Shown here one piece after another: positions 4,050 to 64,000 of a stretch of DNA of 64,000 nt. Position numbers and translations under genes: made by a program. This stretch comes from a virus. Lineage: Duplodnaviria; Caudoviricetes. The stretch covers positions 22,156 to 86,155 of the IMG/VR virus record IMGVR_UViG_3300032312_002284. One strand, given 5' to 3'. The notes beneath the pieces were generated by a model, which made no database searches, had not been told where the DNA came from, and saw nothing but the letters and a program-made list of their open reading frames with translations. How positions within the stretch are numbered: position 1 is the stretch's first letter; each line of letters begins with the position of its first letter.

Positions 4050-7000
4050 ATGGCAAACGAATTTAATATAAAAAATGGTTTTATAACCAGCGGAAACTCT
4101 GTTGTTTATGCGGGGTTAAATGTAACGAGTGGATTAACCGCAACAACAATATCTGCAACAACTTATTTTAACTTACCATCTTCAAGTGGTGGAACATTTA
4201 CAGGAGGAACTGTATCAGGGGGAACTAACTTCACAGGTGGGGTTACTGCAAATACAGTATCACAGGTTAATTATATTGACTTTACAACAGGGTCAACAAA
4301 TCCATCTCAAACAGGGGGAAGAATGTTCTTTGATAATGTATCAAATGCTCTTTCTTATTATGATGTGGACAATAGTTTAGTACCAATTGCGATGGGACAA
4401 CAACTCTACACAAGAGTTTATAATGGTACAGGAGTTCAGATTGATAAGGGTAAAGTAATTACAATTACTGGAACAACTATTGGTTTACCGAGTATAAGAT
4501 TGGCGACCAATAATCACACATTACAAAGTCCAAGACCTGTTGGACTTGCGGCTGAGAACATACCGAATGGAGGTACAGGGTTAGTTTTAAATAATGGCAT
4601 TTTAAGTGGAATAACACTTAACACATTTGCAAATGGTGATACGTTATACCTTTCTGATACAATTCCTGGTGAGTATGTTAATTCAACATCGTCATTATCT
4701 TTTACGGCAAGAACAAATGAAATTGGATATGTTCTTCAAACAGGTACAACGACAGGTAAGATTTATGTTAATATCAATAATGAAGATAGTAATCTAACTC
4801 TAACGGATATTGAAAGAAATATCTTGGAGGGTAATGTCATTTCAGGTGGTGTTTATGAATACACTGGAATGACTCAGGGTACGGGTCAAACAATTAACGT
4901 TGCATATGCTAGAGGATGGATTGTTAAAAATACATATTCATTTGCAACATTACCTGATGTAACCAATGTTTATTATTCAGGTGGAACAAACATACCTTTA
5001 ACATATTTGAATAGTGCAGATGCAACATATATTTTAATTAATAGTGCATCAACACTCTATCAACAAACGTCATTTCCAACACCACAACAAAGAAGGGAAA
5101 ATATATTTCTTGGTAAGGTAGTTCATCCAAATAGAAGTACGATTACATCAATTAACCAAACGGTTGACTTTGATGTATCTCCTATGGCAGCACTTCGTGA
5201 CTTGTGGACACCATTAAAATTAATTAATCAGGGTGTTATTGTTTCATATTATAGTGCGGGTACGATGAGCATTCAGACATCTGCCGGAACATTATGGGGT
5301 AATGGTATTGGGTGGACGACGAATCAATTAAATCCTGATAGTATTTCCATTTCAGGAACATCACCAACCACATTTCAATATCGTTCAAGATTAGGTCCTA
5401 TTACAGGTTCAACATCAAACCCTGGTGACCCAGCGGCACCAACTGGAAATACAACAACAATTGATTCTCACCATTATGACTTAAATGGTAGTATTGTTCC
5501 TGTAGGTGGTAATAACAGGGCAACAAATCAAAGGATTTATTTGTTTCCAACTGGGTTAATTAGAATACAGTATGGTCAGTTTTCATATTCAAGTATGGCA
5601 AATGCTATTGCTGGTATAGATACTGAAATATTCGTTGAATACGGGAATAATAGAGATAACGGTATATTAATAGGTATATTAACGGTTCGTGAAGATGCCT
5701 CTGACTTATCGTTAACCACCGATGCTCAATTTAGGTTTGTATCAAAATTTGGTGAGTTATTAGCCGGCGCTGGAGGTATATCAACAACAACTTTACAACA
5801 AGCATATGAAAATTCAGCAACACCTGAAATAGTAACAAATTCAGCAGAAGGAGCATTATCAATCCAAAATGGAACGGGAGCTGCGGATAATGTAACAAAT
5901 TTATTTGAGGGTAGAAATACCGCAACATCACTCACATCATTCATTAGAGCTGATGGAGCGTTTTCAGGAACTTCAATATTTGGAACAGGATTAACTGCGA
6001 CTACAATATCTGCAACAACTGCAACGATAAGAAAAATTACAGGTGGTTCAGGTAATACCAATTCAGGAACATATTCATTTATAGGTGGGGGTCAATCAAA
6101 TTCGGCAACAGGTAATTGTAGTGTAGTTGGTGGAGGACGACAAAACACCTTGAGTGGGTCATATTCATTTATTGGTGGTGGACTTTGTAACACAGCAAGT
6201 AATAATTGCTCAACCGTAAGTGGAGGATATAAGAACACTGTACTAAGTACGTCATCATTTATTGGTGGTGGAAGATGTAATATCTCCAACATTGCTGGAG
6301 GAGGTAACACTAATAGTGATGTTATTGTTGGAGGTATCTCTAACTCAACATCATCGGGATATTATGGAGTTGGTCAAAATTTTATCGGAGGTGGAGTTAC
6401 AAATTCCATATGTGGTGATTATAATGTTGTTGTGGGTGGGGGTGGAAATTCTGTAAATGATATATCGGAATATTCGGCGATAGTCGGAGGATATAACAAT
6501 AAGATTTGTTTTGCACCTTCTTACTCACAATATTCTGTGATTGGTGGTGGAGAGTCAAATGTATTATCCGCAACTCATAGTTTTATTGGTGGAGGAGAAT
6601 TGAATACTATTTCAGGATTTACTTGTTATTCTGTAATTGGTGGTGGTTTTTGTAATAGAGTTACGTGTAATTTATCAAGTGTCGCGGGTGGGGTTTTAAA
6701 TAGAATATCAGGTCAAAATTCATTTATTGGAGGTGGAAGTGGTAATACTGTTTCAGGTCAATATTCATTTATTGGTGGAGGATGTAATAACATTACAAGT
6801 GGTAATACATCAACCGTAGGTGGAGGACGATGTAATATTGCAAATGGAGCGTGTTCATTTATTGGTGGAGGTCAGTTTAACACCGCAAGTAGTACGGGTT
6901 CGACCATAGCTGGAGGACTTTGTAATATTGCCGGTGGAGCGTATTCATTTGTTGGTGGAGGTACGGGTAATACGATGAGCTCATCTACAACTTGTTTTAG

Positions 7001-21400: not shown

Positions 21401-22841
21401 CAGTACCTAATGACAAGTTTTTGATTGACATATGTACCGTCATGCCGACTGTAGGGACCACACCTTGACCAACCCAGTTAACCCCTGTTACTTGATAATT
21501 AACACTTGAACAACATTCTTGTAGAATGTAGTATGCGTTTTTATTAACAGGTGTTGGTGTTAGTGTTGGTGTTACGGAAGGTGAAACTGGTGATGGTGGG
21601 GAAACAGGGTTATTAATTAAATATTGTAATGTTACAGTATTACAAGATGGACTGGATGAACCAGCGCCTGAAATATTTTGACCATTAGCTAAGTTAAATT
21701 GAAACGTGACTTGCCAAACAGTCCCACTATAAGTTAATCTATAAACAGAATAACCATTTATTAGATATAAGTTATTACCTTGAGTTGCAATACCTTCAAC
21801 CTGAGTTAATCCCAAGTTTGTTAGGTTTATTGTATTTTGTAGTACTCCTGAACCATTATACTCATTTAAATACTTTACACCTGAGCCACTTGTCACAGAC
21901 ATTATGTATGTGTTTGAAGATGTCTTGATTAAATCACCAGTAATTGAATATCCTGCAGGTAATGAAAATAATAATGTATTACTTGCGGTCGAAGTACTTA
22001 CGTTTAATGAGTAAATTGAATTACTTGAATTACAAATTAATACGTTTTCACTCACACTTGCTAAACCTCTACCAAGAGTAATCGTTGTCGATATTGTATT
22101 AATTAATTGTAAATTTGACTTGTTATATCGATATATTACATTTCCTAAATTGGATGTGTAAATATAACTTGTTGTTACCGCAATATCATTTGAAGTTAAT
22201 GCCGGATTTAAAGTACCTAAAAGAGAATATGTATTTGCACTAGGATTGATTGTTGTAATCCTATCTGCATTTGCATCAATTAAATATATTGTACAATCAA
22301 CATAACCTGGTGGTGGACTTGTTGATGGTGTTGGTGTTTGTGTGGGTGTTTTGGTTGGGGTCTTAGTTTGTGTTTTAGTAACTGTTGGAGTCTTAGTTTT
22401 TGTTGGGGTAACTGTTTTAGTTGGTGTTGGAGTTTTAGTTTTAGTTGGTGTTGGAGTTTTTGTTGGAGTTCTAGTTGGACTCGCAGCTGGACCTCCTGAA
22501 TCTAAACAAATTGTAATTTCATCTTTACAAACAGCACAGCTAGCACAAGCATAATTAAAACTTGGACATGGTCCATAACCACCACTACCTACAAATCCAG
22601 TCCAAGTGTATGTTGAAAGAGATGGATTAGGTCCTGGAAGTGAGGATACAATTATTCCACAATCACCTGCTGGGAAACCTGTACTTACAATCGTATATAC
22701 TTCACCTATTCCAACAGTTATAGTATCGCCTAAGTAATTAGTATAATCAGGAATACCGCTAGGGGCGTAAAGAACATACTGAGTTTGAGATACTCCTACG
22801 CAACATCTAACAATTTTATAATAACCTGGTAATAAAGCCAT
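18465..22841 (-). CDS. Very large Pro/Thr-repeat, Cys-rich modular protein, probably virion surface
   Basis: 1458 aa with at least 6 TPTPTKT/SVTP tracts separating globular modules. Two internally repeated ~230-aa beta-rich domains and paired-Cys (RCC, ECC) modules. Confidence 0.65.
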   Translation of the reverse strand: MALLPGYYKIVRCCVGVSQTQYVLYAPSGIPDYTNYLGDTITVGIGEVYTIVSTGFPAGDCGIIVSSLPGPNPSLSTYTWTGFVGSGGYGPCPSFNYACASCAVCKDEITICLDSGGPAASPTRTPTKTPTPTKTKTPTPTKTVTPTKTKTPTVTKTQTKTPTKTPTQTPTPSTSPPPGYVDCTIYLIDANADRITTINPSANTYSLLGTLNPALTSNDIAVTTSYIYTSNLGNVIYRYNKSNLQLINTISTTITLGRGLASVSENVLICNSSNSIYSLNVSTSTASNTLLFSLPAGYSITGDLIKTSSNTYIMSVTSGSGVKYLNEYNGSGVLQNTINLTNLGLTQVEGIATQGNNLYLINGYSVYRLTYSGTVWQVTFQFNLANGQNISGAGSSSPSCNTVTLQYLINNPVSPPSPVSPSVTPTLTPTPVNKNAYYILQECCSSVNYQVTGVNWVGQGVVPTVGMTVHMSIKNLSLGTEITSCFVLISFSTVFNGTLPLYGPPTVASTTITKYGTNDCANCLSSESIICTSPTPTPTKTKTPTPTPTKTLTKTPTKTPTKTPTVTPSSGTDTCPIYVNFAGSIYLNNPITETTSLVGACVGGTPPTADLAVSQNYFFGYASFVISRYNKQTLQFVDSRTLPSGFFIGAGFDAIDDNNVVFESDGVLYRANLIPTVPIVTTLFTLGNGLYSTLNGDVLILSNGKYITSEYQYNPSNDDEFFYIRQYSSTGNIEVEVLVGGYTNSGGSFGYSDIYGIAMKGGNVYLYRGSGPILQLTYNLGSWSTTPQGSTVANAGAASLVACNTISLTDLENNPEPAPAPIPGSPTPTKTATQTKTPTPTRTPGLVAPSPTTSITPSTTPKFGASPTTTPTITPTKTATSTPFPVKASVTPTKTSTVTPSPVCISPVITNVVLHTPPNAFFVFWSGAGVNCTSVTVYYSFDGISYTPSTVGCSSPASIVMGGYVTGPVYVYTEAICSSGGVSSPSKIFSTTPIVVTPSVTPSVTPSNTPPRSATPTKTPTSTKTPTATVTPTSQSPTVTASFTPTPTPTKTGISFKSPTPTATNTSTPTVTPTVTPTTYTICPQQVYTLYTNDPLYTQYDGVYLQYGEYNSEAYFWNPSNEYFIYYSSANTRWCLSTNLGESCILEGKSPCYSICPDLCDDILYTGYITPTPSPSDNTCSDFYFEALFDCSIGGSTYPGLTPSNTVTSTPTLTPTPTVTPTQYCYGKSVDVSATTFTISVSQTPTPSPTTSPIPYNVPLSGSVTYNSFEQNLLCPISKKLSDCNSDQIFYVTGSLGDIPIGGIISVFINNISYCVTYLDSVSQAPTHTLTSIESGDLLNCVFCTPGVSPQVTPSNTVTPTPTKTTTPTPSSQLYTYIYRVCRSYPLSPIIVIQSQPVLNVNLGQGFTSQPTSPSQGKKVTFINVIPGWNPNYPADIVFTGNYFGVASNITDTPNCPS

Positions 22842-61114: not shown

Positions 61115-61277
61115 ACTTGAAACACCAATACATATCAATTATATTTCTGAATATATTCTTAGAGTTGGTTTAAATGAAACTAAAGAAAGAATTGACAATT
61201 TAATTGAGGATGGATTAGTTAAAGAAAGTGAATATGGAAAAGGATATTATGTCAGAACAAAAAGAAATGGTAAATAA
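61074..61277 (+). CDS. Small winged-helix-like protein
   Basis: IHINYISEYILRVGLNETKERIDNLIEDGLVKE..GKGYY. Confidence 0.4.
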   Translation: MRKNTSPTEILLSKLETPIHINYISEYILRVGLNETKERIDNLIEDGLVKESEYGKGYYVRTKRNGK

Positions 61278-61479
61278 CCCCGAACACTATGGTGGGGGTT
61301 CAAATCCATATGAGGCGATAAAAGTAATTGATGCTTGGGACCTTGGGTTCTGTTTAGGTAACACAGTGAAATATATTTCTAGAGCTGGTAAAAAACACAA
61401 AGAAAAAGAGTTAGAAGATTTGAAAAAAGCTCTTTGGTATTTACAACATCACATTGAAAAGTTAGAAAATAATGATTGA
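61249..61479 (+). CDS. DUF3310-family protein
   Basis: VNNPEHY...EAIKVI...FCLGNTVKYISRAGKK...EDLKKALWYL. Confidence 0.8.
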   Translation: MSEQKEMVNNPEHYGGGSNPYEAIKVIDAWDLGFCLGNTVKYISRAGKKHKEKELEDLKKALWYLQHHIEKLENND

Positions 61480-62329
61480 AAATTATATTAATAAAGTTAT
61501 TACCGGAGATTGTATTGAGGTGATGAAAGAAATGCCTGAAGGTTGGGTTGATTTAATTGTTACATCTCCACCTTACGGTGTTAATATTGCTTACGATGTT
61601 CACAACGACGACATGGAGATTGGTGAATATTTGGAATTTACCAGACAATGGTTAACTGAAGCTTATAAAGTATTAAAAGACGATGGACGTATCGCTTTAA
61701 ACATTCCTTATGAGATTAATAGACAATCAAAGGGAGGTAGAATTTTTTTCGTATCTGAAGTTTATCAGGTTATGAAAGAGATTGGGTTTAAGTTCTTTGG
61801 TGTAGTTGATTTAGAAGAAGATAGTCCCCACAGAAGTAAAACAACTGCTTGGGGAAGTTGGATGAGCCCATCTAGTCCGTACATCTATAATCCAAAAGAA
61901 TGTGTTATATTGGCTTATAAGAAGGTTCATATTAAGAAAGTTAAAGGTGAAGCACAATGGAAGGGAGAACCAACAGTAACTGAAGAAGGTAAGAACAAGA
62001 TGGTTTATCAGGAGGAGGATAAAAAAGAGTTTATGGAGTTAGTATTTGGTCAGTGGAAGTATTTTGCTGACACAAGGTCCTTAACTAAAGCAACATTCTC
62101 AATGGACATCCCAAATAAAGCAATTAAGATTCTATCTTACAAGAATGATGTTATTTTAGACCCATTTAATGGAAGTGGTACAAGTTGTGTGGCAGCCGAG
62201 ATTAATGATAGAAGATGGGTAGGGATTGAATTATCTGAAAATTATGCAAATATTTCTAGAGAAAGAATACAAGGATTTGTTGACCAAAAGAAACAACAAA
62301 AATTAGAATTTGAAAACGGAGGGCAATAA
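61472..62329 (+). CDS. Beta-class N4-cytosine/N6-adenine DNA methyltransferase
   Basis: GDC, IVTSPPY (motif IV) before LDPFNGSGT (motif I). Confidence 0.9.
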   Translation: MIENYINKVITGDCIEVMKEMPEGWVDLIVTSPPYGVNIAYDVHNDDMEIGEYLEFTRQWLTEAYKVLKDDGRIALNIPYEINRQSKGGRIFFVSEVYQVMKEIGFKFFGVVDLEEDSPHRSKTTAWGSWMSPSSPYIYNPKECVILAYKKVHIKKVKGEAQWKGEPTVTEEGKNKMVYQEEDKKEFMELVFGQWKYFADTRSLTKATFSMDIPNKAIKILSYKNDVILDPFNGSGTSCVAAEINDRRWVGIELSENYANISRERIQGFVDQKKQQKLEFENGGQ

Positions 62330-62345
62330 CCTCCGTTTTTTATTT
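62313..62345 (+). terminator. Intrinsic terminator
   Basis: AAAACGGAGG-GCAATAA-CCTCCGTTTT followed by a T-tract. Confidence 0.8.
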
Positions 62346-62372
62346 TATGATATATTTATTAATAAAAGAATT

Positions 62373-62738
62373 ATGGAACAGGTTATTATTGAACTTTTAA
62401 CAATACAAAATCAATTTAGAATTTTTCATTGGCAAACAAAGTCATACTCAAGACATAGTGCATTTGGAATGGTTTACGACAGTCTTGATGATTTAATTGA
62501 TACGTTTGTTGAAATTTGTATGGGTAAGCATGGTAGACCTGACTTCCAAGGGAAAGTCAGTTTAATACTTTCTGATTTAAAAGAATTGGACCCAACTCAT
62601 TTCTGTGACACTGTTATTGAATTTTTAATTGATTTGAACAATAAGTACGACAAAACAAAAGACAGTGACTTATTAAATTTACGTGATGAAATTATGAGTC
62701 TAATCAACAAGTTGAAATATTTGTTGACTTTAAAATAA
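62373..62738 (+). CDS. Ferritin/Dps-like four-helix protein (DUF5856-like)
   Basis: FHWQTKSYSRHSAFG..YDSLDDLIDTFVE and NLRDEI...NKLKYLLTLK. Confidence 0.65.
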   Translation: MEQVIIELLTIQNQFRIFHWQTKSYSRHSAFGMVYDSLDDLIDTFVEICMGKHGRPDFQGKVSLILSDLKELDPTHFCDTVIEFLIDLNNKYDKTKDSDLLNLRDEIMSLINKLKYLLTLK

Positions 62739-62757
62739 TCAATTTTAATTTCTTATT

Positions 62758-63171
62758 ATGAAAGACGTAGCGGGTATTTTAGTTAAATACCAAGATAGGT
62801 GTTTGCTTTGTAAAAGAGCTCCGGGTGAGCATTTGGAAGGATATTGGTCAATTCCTTGTGGAGGGGTTAAACCTAAGGAAGATTTAAAAGATGCTGCAGT
62901 AAGAGAATTTAGGGAAGAAACTTATTTAGTTTTAAATCCTCAAGAAGTTTCTTATGTAACATCAATTCTTAATTCAAACAAAAAAAAAGTAATAACATCT
63001 ATATTACATGTATTTTATACAAAGGCCTCAACCATTAAAAAACCTAATTTAGAAAAGGCAAAAGATGGGTTTGAACATACTGAATGCCGTTATTTTGGGT
63101 TAAGTGAGGTGGATAATTTAAAAATTACTTCAAAACTCAAAGAAATTATCAAAAAAGCCTTGGCAAATTAA
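62758..63171 (+). CDS. Nudix hydrolase
   Basis: Nudix box GGVKPKEDLKDAAVREFREET. Confidence 0.9.
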   Translation: MKDVAGILVKYQDRCLLCKRAPGEHLEGYWSIPCGGVKPKEDLKDAAVREFREETYLVLNPQEVSYVTSILNSNKKKVITSILHVFYTKASTIKKPNLEKAKDGFEHTECRYFGLSEVDNLKITSKLKEIIKKALAN

Positions 63172-63248
63172 AAAAAAAGTATTAGATTTGTATCACTTTT
63201 GAAATATTAAAGATATTTATATTTCACAAGAAAAAAACTCTAAAAAAG

Positions 63249-63280
63249 TTTGACACTTTGAAAAAAATGTCGTAAGTTTG
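63249..63280 (+). promoter_or_regulatory. Promoter P1 of the ncRNA locus
   Basis: TTTG-N20-TAAGTTTG (Bacteroidota -33/-7), overlapping TTGACA-N17-TAAGTT. Confidence 0.75.
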
Positions 63281-63340
63281 TAAAAGATTTGAGATAGGTA
63301 ACGATTCAGATACAAGTCTCAAAAAAAATAAAACAAATTA

Positions 63341-63372
63341 CTTGACAAGAACAGAAAAATGTCGTAACTTTG
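63341..63372 (+). promoter_or_regulatory. Promoter P2 of the ncRNA locus
   Basis: CTTG-N20-TAACTTTG, overlapping TTGACA-N17-TAACTT. Shares AAAAATGTCGTAA with P1. Confidence 0.75.
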
Positions 63373-63380
63373 TAAAACAA

Positions 63381-63423
63381 ATCTCAAATGTGAGATTTAA
63401 AACGGGGAAACGTTCTTTGAAAA
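63381..63423 (+). promoter_or_regulatory. boxB/boxA-like antitermination element
   Basis: Hairpin ATCTCA-AATG-TGAGAT (63381-63396) followed by GTTCTTTGAAAA (63412-63423). Confidence 0.5.
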
Positions 63424-64000
63424 TACCTAAATACCCCCTTTGAAGTATATAGGTAATATTAATTATCCGTTCAGTAGTTGATTATGAGACCTTCGGGTTG
63501 ATTATGAGACATTTAATCTGATAAACGATAATGGGCCGTGTATGGTCCTTAAATAAACTACGAAAGTAGGATAAAGTGGTCTCCCCTGTGTTGAGGAGAC
63601 TGCGGTTTGAAACCCCGTAAGGGGAATTGAACTCAAGTACACAAGTGGGATATCATCAAACCTTTAGTACCGAGGATAACTTCGTAGGGAAAATGGTAGG
63701 GTGACTTGGGAAAGTAGATTCTCAAGTTGAGTTCGGAAGAACAATAAGAATAACCCATAGGAACTCTGTAAGAAATGTGACCATCCAGTTACACTATTGC
63801 GGGTCCCAATATAATAGAGGACTTAAAACCGAAAGGTAAGATAGAGAACGAGTGGTGTCGCTACTATCCCTAAGGAATACCTACCAAGGTATCTTTATGA
63901 AGTAATCTTGAAATATGGAGGTGGGGACACTTCACGGAGTAGTTTAGTATTCTGTCGCTCAAAAGGAGACGGAGCTTACGGTGGACCACTACTCTGACAC
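63424..64000 (+). ncRNA. Large structured non-coding RNA (GOLLD/ROOL-class candidate), 3'-truncated by the window
   Basis: No ORF of 60 aa or more, elevated GC, multiple GNRA/UUCG tetraloop hairpins and nested long-range helices. The 5' boundary is approximate. Confidence 0.7.

Follow-up and report, generated by a model that had tools for sequence, protein, structure and literature searches.

The structured, gene-free end of the window, by which we mean the whole 64,000-nucleotide (nt) stretch of virus DNA analysed (positions 22,156 to 86,155 of IMG/VR record IMGVR_UViG_3300032312_002284; G000:C1:22156-86155), is the 5′ two-thirds of a GOLLD RNA (RF02032), which lies on the + strand and is cut at the contig end. 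In an earlier note made from the sequence, positions 63424-64000 had been described as a large non-coding RNA that was either GOLLD- or ROOL-like or a member of a new class; the assignment to GOLLD stood, whereas ROOL and a new class did not. The explanation favoured here as a whole, namely a GOLLD gene that forms its own transcription unit behind tandem promoters, with a product expected to build a cage and a guess at its function, is held with high confidence.

When positions 63100-64000 were searched permissively against Rfam, GOLLD was matched at 63935-64000 (+) with 52.5 bits and an E value of 1e-12, and the next-best matches had E values above 1, which is noise. The match spans model positions 1-66 of 416 and was flagged as truncated at its 3′ end. 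Base 64000 is the last base of the 86,155-bp virus record, and the RNA has thus been truncated by the assembly. RF02032 is a model of the universally conserved 3′ domain alone and has a gathering score of 150 bits; as the contig stops within this domain, the whole window gave zero matches at the Rfam gathering thresholds. The restriction of the model to the 3′ domain also implies that the sequence before 63935 would be the less conserved 5′ domain. Such a less conserved, separately folding domain is present directly upstream of the 3′ domain, at 63532-63934 (403 nt), with 18 helices supported by covariation. ROOL was absent from the matches with E ≤ 10 in 63100-64000, and the whole window gave no ROOL match at the gathering threshold. 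The Rfam search that the earlier note had proposed therefore led to GOLLD and to no intron or housekeeping RNA: the models for ribosomal RNA (rRNA), RNase P, transfer-messenger RNA (tmRNA), group I/II introns, OLE and HEARO had no match in 63100-64000, and ARAGORN detected neither transfer RNA (tRNA) nor tmRNA in the window, in agreement with the reported lack of such signatures. The raised guanine-cytosine content, which had been judged by eye, and the lack of genes were likewise borne out, with values of 0.39-0.42 in 63400-63999 against 0.21-0.37 across the 5 kb before it, and with no open reading frame (ORF) of more than 46 amino acids overlapping 63424-64000. The folding energy of the + strand beats that of shuffled sequences (z = −2.96, with 0 of 100 shuffles reaching it); the folding of the − strand is weaker (z = −1.83).

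The remainder of the gene was recovered from related contigs. When the region was compared by blastn with 50,697 phage records, only two matched, the uncultured huge phages LR745206 (635 kb) and LR756502 (642 kb), and the part linked in this way is 63533-63776 of the window. In both phages the homologous stretch lies approximately 420-440 nt upstream of a complete GOLLD match (287 and 275 bits, respectively), which is the same spacing to the 3′ domain as in the window. Blastn of the full 3′ domain against the same collection also found only two records. GOLLD is too divergent for blastn, which finds too little; homologues were therefore collected from IMG/VR using a structure-aware DNA pattern of the first 3′-domain helix. 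In total, 68 loci were recovered, nearly all of which share the 5′ part of the window at 73-100% identity. Four of these (L010, L053, L063 and L070) are 100% identical to the window over 63200-64000 (801 nt) and approximately 96% identical over 3-6 kb, and continue past the break; they are strains of the same phage running through the contig break. Rfam was run on 13 homologous loci, including L010 and L053. Both of the latter carry the complete RF02032 model 1-416 at 317.6 bits each, starting exactly at the equivalent of 63935 (L010:6293-6686; L053:3950-4343) and showing the remaining ~330 nt, and the 11 other loci scored 298-325 bits. In place of the contig extension suggested in the earlier note, these near-identical strains supplied the full GOLLD 3′ domain.

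The 5′ domain was linked to GOLLD env-38 (JCVI_SCAF_1096627009515/1239-410, PDB 9MEE; Kretsch et al. 2025, PMC12286853), for which cryo-electron microscopy revealed a closed, RNA-only 14-mer nanocage with D7 symmetry, in which the 5′ regions form the caps and the 3′ regions form the rings (PMC12286853). The env-38 construct sequence and its bridge residues (supplementary table 2) were taken from the supplement of PMC12286853. By eye and over its whole length, the construct is visibly homologous to the window from 63532 on, and the motifs follow each other in the same order. One 20-mer of env-38 occurs exactly at 63560-63579, and a 36-mer occurs with two mismatches at 63725-63760, where zero such matches are expected by chance; an exact env-38 46-mer had no match in the viral contig collection. 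The canonical start of the RNA lies at approximately 63532, and 63424-63531 is part of a 5′ leader.

Covariation, which the earlier note had proposed to examine, was assessed in an alignment of 34 distinct full-length homologues and was observed for 18 helices of the 5′ domain. This GOLLD 5′ ('cap') domain (63532..63934, +; approximately env-38 residues 1-420 by homology and covariation) has a consensus of 94 pairs that are 97.6% paired, with changes on both sides at 67 pairs; the consensus structure was derived from the same alignment on which it was scored. In the controls, 0 of 500 shuffles reached the covariation values of the 5′ domain, and slid alignments were only 34-46% paired.

All elements of the fold lie on the + strand. 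At the start of the 5′ domain, GGGC...GUCC (63534-63549) and GUGUAU/GUACAC (63538-63543 with 63637-63642) both covary and cannot nest; these pairings could represent a pseudoknot or two alternative folds. The hairpin CUAC-GAAA-GUAG (63558..63569) is 98.5% paired with compensatory changes at four of four pairs, and its loop is G-A-A-A in 32-33 of 33 sequences. It is followed by two adjacent hairpins (63576..63633), GUGGUCUCC...GGAGACUGC (93.6% paired) and GGUUUG...UGAACU (99% paired), the latter bearing an optional tip, CCCC-GUAA-GGGG (63613-63624), in only 13 of the 34 homologues. A covarying long-range helix, GUGGG.UAU / AUA.CCCAU (63645-63653 with 63750-63758, spanning 63645..63758), encloses three hairpins at 63670-63688 (loop GAGG.UAAC), 63705-63726 and 63731-63742 (GUUC-GGAA-GAAC). 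These four helices are 95.8-100% paired with compensatory changes at 17 of 24 pairs, and G63674, G63675, A63679, C63680 and the GGAA loop are invariant in 34/34 sequences. Next comes a three-segment arm (63760..63807) whose helices are 94-100% paired and whose loop, CCAUCCAG at 63781-63788, contains the conserved U63784, C63785 and C63786.

The second covarying long-range helix, AUAU..AGA..ACUU / AAGU..UCU..AUAU (63809-63824 with 63900-63916), encloses ACC-GAAA-GGU (63828-63837), GAUAG/CUAUC (63840-63844 with 63864-63868) with an inner hairpin CGA-GUGGUG-UCG, and a UAC-CUACCAAG-GUA hairpin (63878-63891) of which CUACCAAG is the loop. The helices of this region are 94-100% paired, and the loops GUGGUG (63852-63857) and ACCAA (63883-63887) are invariant throughout the 34 sequences. 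The domain closes with the hairpin GAGGUG-GGGA-CACUUC (63918..63933), which is 100% paired with four of six pairs compensatory and a conserved loop. The first helical element of the 3′ domain (63935..64000), which is the RF02032 match, corresponds to the P14 region (env-38 residues 422-481). Its outer helix GAGUAGU/ACUACUC is always paired, with six of seven pairs invariant and one varying between G-C and G-U, and its inner helix UCUGUC/GACGGA is 100% paired with compensatory changes at five of six pairs.

The 11 pairs of helix arms quoted in the earlier note all match the sequence letter for letter at the positions given there, and eight of them were upheld by the alignment (88-100% paired, all but GAGUAGU/ACUACUC with compensatory changes). 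These are the local hairpins GACC/GGUU, CUAC/GUAG, GUCUCC/GGAGAC, CCCC/GGGG, ACC/GGU and GAGGUG/CACUUC and the outer and inner helices of the 3′ domain. The other three (64-74% paired) were rejected, each with almost no compensatory change: both of the nested long-range helices, GGUAGG/CCUACC (74% paired) and GGGAAAGUAG/CUACUAUCCC (68% paired), as well as the stem GAGUUC/GAACUC (64% paired). Single-sequence energy folding does reproduce GGUAGG/CCUACC. The segments of all three pair elsewhere in the alignment-based consensus, in which helices within 63645-63758 replace GGGAAAGUAG/CUACUAUCCC and GAGUUC/GAACUC.

Putative equivalents of the five inter-subunit bridges of the env-38 cage were located in the window by motif. 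Bridge B1, an A-minor bridge from the 5′ domain to the 3′ domain of a neighbour (PMC12286853), involves env-38 A34/A35, which correspond to the last two A's of the CUAC-GAAA-GUAG loop (63564-63565). B2 (env-38 G140-G142, A145 and C146) maps to GAGG.UAAC at 63672-63680, and B3 (A203/A204) to the GGAA loop at 63737-63738. The kissing bridge B4 (G410-U414 with A253-C257) corresponds to GGGA 63924-63927 with AUCC 63783-63786, and the intermolecular bridge B5 (G340-U342 with A369-A372) to GUGGUG 63852-63857 with UACCA 63882-63886. As part of the B5 loop, CCUACC looked pairable and yet showed no covariation with GGUAGG. The positions mapped to B1-B5 are invariant or nearly so across the 34 homologues; in the three most divergent ones the B4 pair A63927-U63784 is changed to G-C, and the neighbouring pair is lost there. 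Given this conservation of the bridge loops, the present member would be expected, by homology, to self-assemble into the same env-38-type cage. The RNA-only assembly raised as a possibility in the earlier note thus agrees with the RNA-only 14-mer cage of the GOLLD family (PMC12286853), and may be extended to this member by the same homology. As a separate observation, the homologue at L031:3303-3980 joins the equivalents of 63517 and 63651 directly and lacks ~133 nt of the 5′ domain, and is thus a natural deletion variant without the GAAA hairpin that maps to B1.

Three 36-nt direct repeats lie upstream of the RNA at 63160, 63250 and 63342, spaced 90 and 92 nt. Each repeat contains TAnnTTTG, at 63183, 63273 and 63365, respectively, and TTGG, TTTG or CTTG occurs 19-20 nt upstream of this box. 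The promoter consensus of the Bacteroidota sigma factor sigma-ABfr consists of TAnnTTTG at −7 and TTTG at −33 (PMC7366714). Promoter-like unit 1 (63160..63195, +; TTGG-N19-TAGATTTG, TAnnTTTG at 63183-63190) overlaps the end of a NUDIX gene, and unit 2 (63250..63285, +) has TTTG/TTGACA, 20 nt and TAAGTTTG. Unit 3 (63342..63377, +; TTGACA, 17 nt, TAACTTTG) is nearest to the RNA and has CTTG 20 nt upstream, at the place expected for the −33 TTTG box; transcription after this unit probably starts near 63379-63381. In the homologue alignment, the motif TTA..TTTGTAAAA is conserved at the position of unit 3 (columns 85-101). Of 33 distinct homologous loci, 32 have at least two TAnnTTTG boxes in the 400 nt that precede GOLLD, and the density of the box there is 7.0 per kb, compared with 1.14 per kb elsewhere in those loci. 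The promoter type is suggestive of a Bacteroidota host. Viewed by themselves, the homologous loci have two to four TAnnTTTG boxes before GOLLD, in the manner of an rRNA-like tandem promoter array.

The leader contains two hairpins on the + strand. A small hairpin read from the sequence, AAATCTCA-AATG-TGAGATTT (63379..63398), stands at the probable 5′ end of the transcript; homologues have TCGG...CCGA at this site (columns 103-125), where the pairing is kept and the letters differ. The second (63471..63521) has a UUCG loop and the core GACC-UUCG-GGUU (63488-63499), and is located outside the solved env-38 core. Its core is 89.9% paired with compensatory changes at two of four pairs, and the length of its stem differs from one homologue to another. 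Two copies of the 14-mer GTTGATTATGAGAC, 20 nt apart, flank the UUCG loop within 63477-63513 as a direct and not an inverted duplication. At the other end of the gene, the RNA of L010, which extends from 5890 to 6686, is followed ~15 nt behind by a 9-pair stem and a T run (6701-6721), an intrinsic terminator, and ORFs resume 64 nt after the RNA in L053. The gene is thus free-standing, with ~800 nt (63532 to the equivalent of ~64330) and a ~150-nt leader, and forms its own transcription unit.

The analysis itself shows that the RNA belongs to the family, where its gene begins and ends, which fold covariation supports and that the promoter and bridge motifs are conserved; expression level, host, cage assembly and function are inferred. 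We propose that the GOLLD gene of a large uncultured phage would be transcribed as its own unit from three tandem Bacteroidota-type promoter units, in an arrangement that resembles the multiple promoters of rRNA operons and would point to high expression and to a Bacteroidota host. By homology, the transcript would self-assemble without protein into a D7-symmetric 14-mer nanocage, with the 5′ domains as its two caps, the 3′ domains as its rings and a short A-rich linker pointing inward. The cage may then serve as an abundant RNA compartment or scaffold, produced during lytic growth, with the translation apparatus (tRNAs, tmRNA and ribosomes) as its target. This role is the most likely one and the least certain step of the proposal; it is suggested because GOLLD genes are recurrently linked to tRNA and tmRNA genes. 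Published leads for the family comprise phage tRNA islands, an increase in expression at lysis, ribosome pull-down and the empty interior of the cage (PMC12286853).

Several points weigh against this explanation. The window itself holds only 66 of the 416 model positions, and its 52.5 bits fall below the gathering score of 150, so that membership rests partly on near-identical contigs and not on the exact record. The env-38 comparison consists of two motif searches and a visual comparison rather than a computed alignment, and the bridges were mapped by motif on a PDF-extracted env-38 sequence whose count falls 1-4 nt behind the published numbers. Across the whole window, the complete −33/−7 pattern shows no significant enrichment (4 observed vs 2.6 expected), and the argument for the host is therefore drawn from the repeats upstream of GOLLD alone.

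Other readings of the same stretch were weighed against these observations. The default Rfam scan of the window is blank, and blastn against the phage records matches only the two uncultured huge phages, as would be the case if a large structured phage RNA of a new class, with no relation to GOLLD or ROOL, ended beside a short GOLLD-like hairpin; however, the blank result is accounted for by the truncation, the 5′ stretch is homologous to the 5′ region of env-38, and it is contiguous with a full GOLLD 3′ domain (275-325 bits) in every homologue scanned, on which ground an unrelated class was rejected as scarcely conceivable, barring a rearrangement of this genome directly behind 64000. A cis-acting leader or 5′ untranslated region that controls downstream protein genes, instead of a free-standing RNA, might be suspected from the shared strand of the RNA and its flanking genes and from the ORFs that begin 64 nt behind it in near-identical contigs. 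The stem and T run directly after the RNA speak against such a leader, as do the tRNA gene, not an ORF, that follows in other homologues and the closed multimeric cage that the GOLLD family forms alone in vitro (PMC12286853), and this reading is considered very improbable. The deletion of ~133 nt in L031 would fit a decaying, non-functional GOLLD remnant, but 97.6% pairing and 67 compensatory pairs have been kept across homologues of 70-100% identity, the loops are invariant, and the promoter units and the terminator are intact, which leaves decay with next to no credence.

The main alternative to the translation role accepts the same cage and gives it another job, as a decoy or shield against host defence (e.g. 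by sequestering a nuclease or sensor) or as a container for small molecules. Metabolites and stress-response proteins have been proposed in print as possible cargo of GOLLD (PMC12286853), and the neighbouring NUDIX hydrolase and DNA methylase are as compatible with counter-defence or nucleotide metabolism as with any other role. Nevertheless, no defence or anti-defence gene is consistently linked to GOLLD in the loci seen, where the recurrent neighbours are tRNA and tmRNA genes, and another job is accordingly judged unlikely, though it deserves to be taken seriously. A more specific proposal is that the lineage (large phages of ~150-640 kb with Bacteroidota-type promoters) represents a distinct functional variant of GOLLD, defined by two to four tandem promoters and by a leader hairpin that decorates or gates the cap. 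We regard this as doubtful; if it were true, the conserved UUCG leader hairpin would stay on the mature RNA and change what the cage binds or when it closes.

As a GOLLD RNA, the window copy agrees with env-38 in its two-domain layout, 5′-domain type, hairpin order and start of the 3′ domain (P14 region), as well as in the conserved inter-subunit bridge loops B1-B5 and the phage context. It differs by adding a ~150-nt leader with a UUCG-capped hairpin before the env-38 start and an extra CCCC-GUAA-GGGG tip on one arm, and its 5′ domain is ~403 nt in length, compared with 420 nt in env-38. The full-length relative of the window copy has a short linker without an embedded tRNA. Moreover, env-38 lies downstream of a Met-tRNA, whereas the window RNA follows a NUDIX gene and tandem promoters, and the window copy is truncated by assembly. 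The conserved 3′ domain is shared with other RF02032 GOLLD RNAs, such as those of the Caulobacter phages phiCbK and Ccr34, the relatives of the window copy scoring 275-325 bits, and the 5′ region is reported to differ between GOLLD groups (PMC12286853). Blastn with the 3′ domain of the window lineage reaches almost none of the named phages, which makes this lineage a separate sequence lineage within GOLLD. ROOL, the octameric RNA nanocage of phages and prophages, is likewise large, ornate and phage-borne, builds a cage from RNA alone and often has tRNAs in its vicinity, but its sequence and secondary structure are unrelated, and it has no match in the searched region at E ≤ 10.

A firm identity is thereby given to a stretch that escapes the standard Rfam threshold owing to a contig break within the gene. 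Covariation has been tabulated in print for residues 422-832 of GOLLD only, which form the 3′ region (PMC12286853); to this, approximately 34 distinct env-38-type 5′ domains with covariation for 18 helices are now added, together with the conservation of the cap bridge B1-B5 loops across this lineage. From the two to four tandem Bacteroidota-type promoter units, very strong expression would further be expected, as would a host phylum amenable to functional work. These additions are modest; the window RNA belongs to a known family, and the general understanding of GOLLD is unchanged.

The genes upstream of the RNA (61228-63171), all on the + strand, encode a DUF3310 protein, an N6/N4 DNA methylase (112 bits), a DUF5856 protein and a NUDIX hydrolase (65 bits), and the products of other parts of the window include virion structural proteins and an SbcC-like nuclease subunit. 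GOLLD is phage-encoded and often found beside tRNA genes; here it lies in a virus record with virion proteins, and tRNAs occur in the homologues, a tRNA gene abutting the RNA in several of them and tRNAs lying near it in many. The CheckV completeness estimate is 29% for 86 kb, and homologues occur on contigs of up to 321 kb, which makes a genome of ~300 kb plausible. In the near-identical L053, a tRNA island is located 6.5-9 kb downstream of GOLLD. It comprises a tRNA-like gene detected by ARAGORN at L053:10910-10985, ~6.5 kb downstream, with an undetermined two-base anticodon (48 bits for Rfam tRNA), and a regular island of Lys, Trp, Thr and Ile tRNAs at L053:13247-13574. In four other homologous loci, tmRNA genes (83-113 bits) lie 0.2-2.4 kb from GOLLD (L016:2090-2488, L017:6034-6424, L012:5469-5846 and L026:7893-8285), and L016 also carries an array of more than 12 tRNAs.

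Like the contig of the window, 15 of the 68 fetched GOLLD loci stop within ~500 nt of the first 3′-domain helix (L005, L011, L015, L018, L021, L024, L030, L045, L054, L056, L061, L062, L064, L065 and L067). A stop is a true contig end where the locus spans the whole contig, and some stops may merely reflect how far the fetched sequence reached. Should they be contig ends, assemblies may tend to break at the conserved RNA where related phage strains co-occur.

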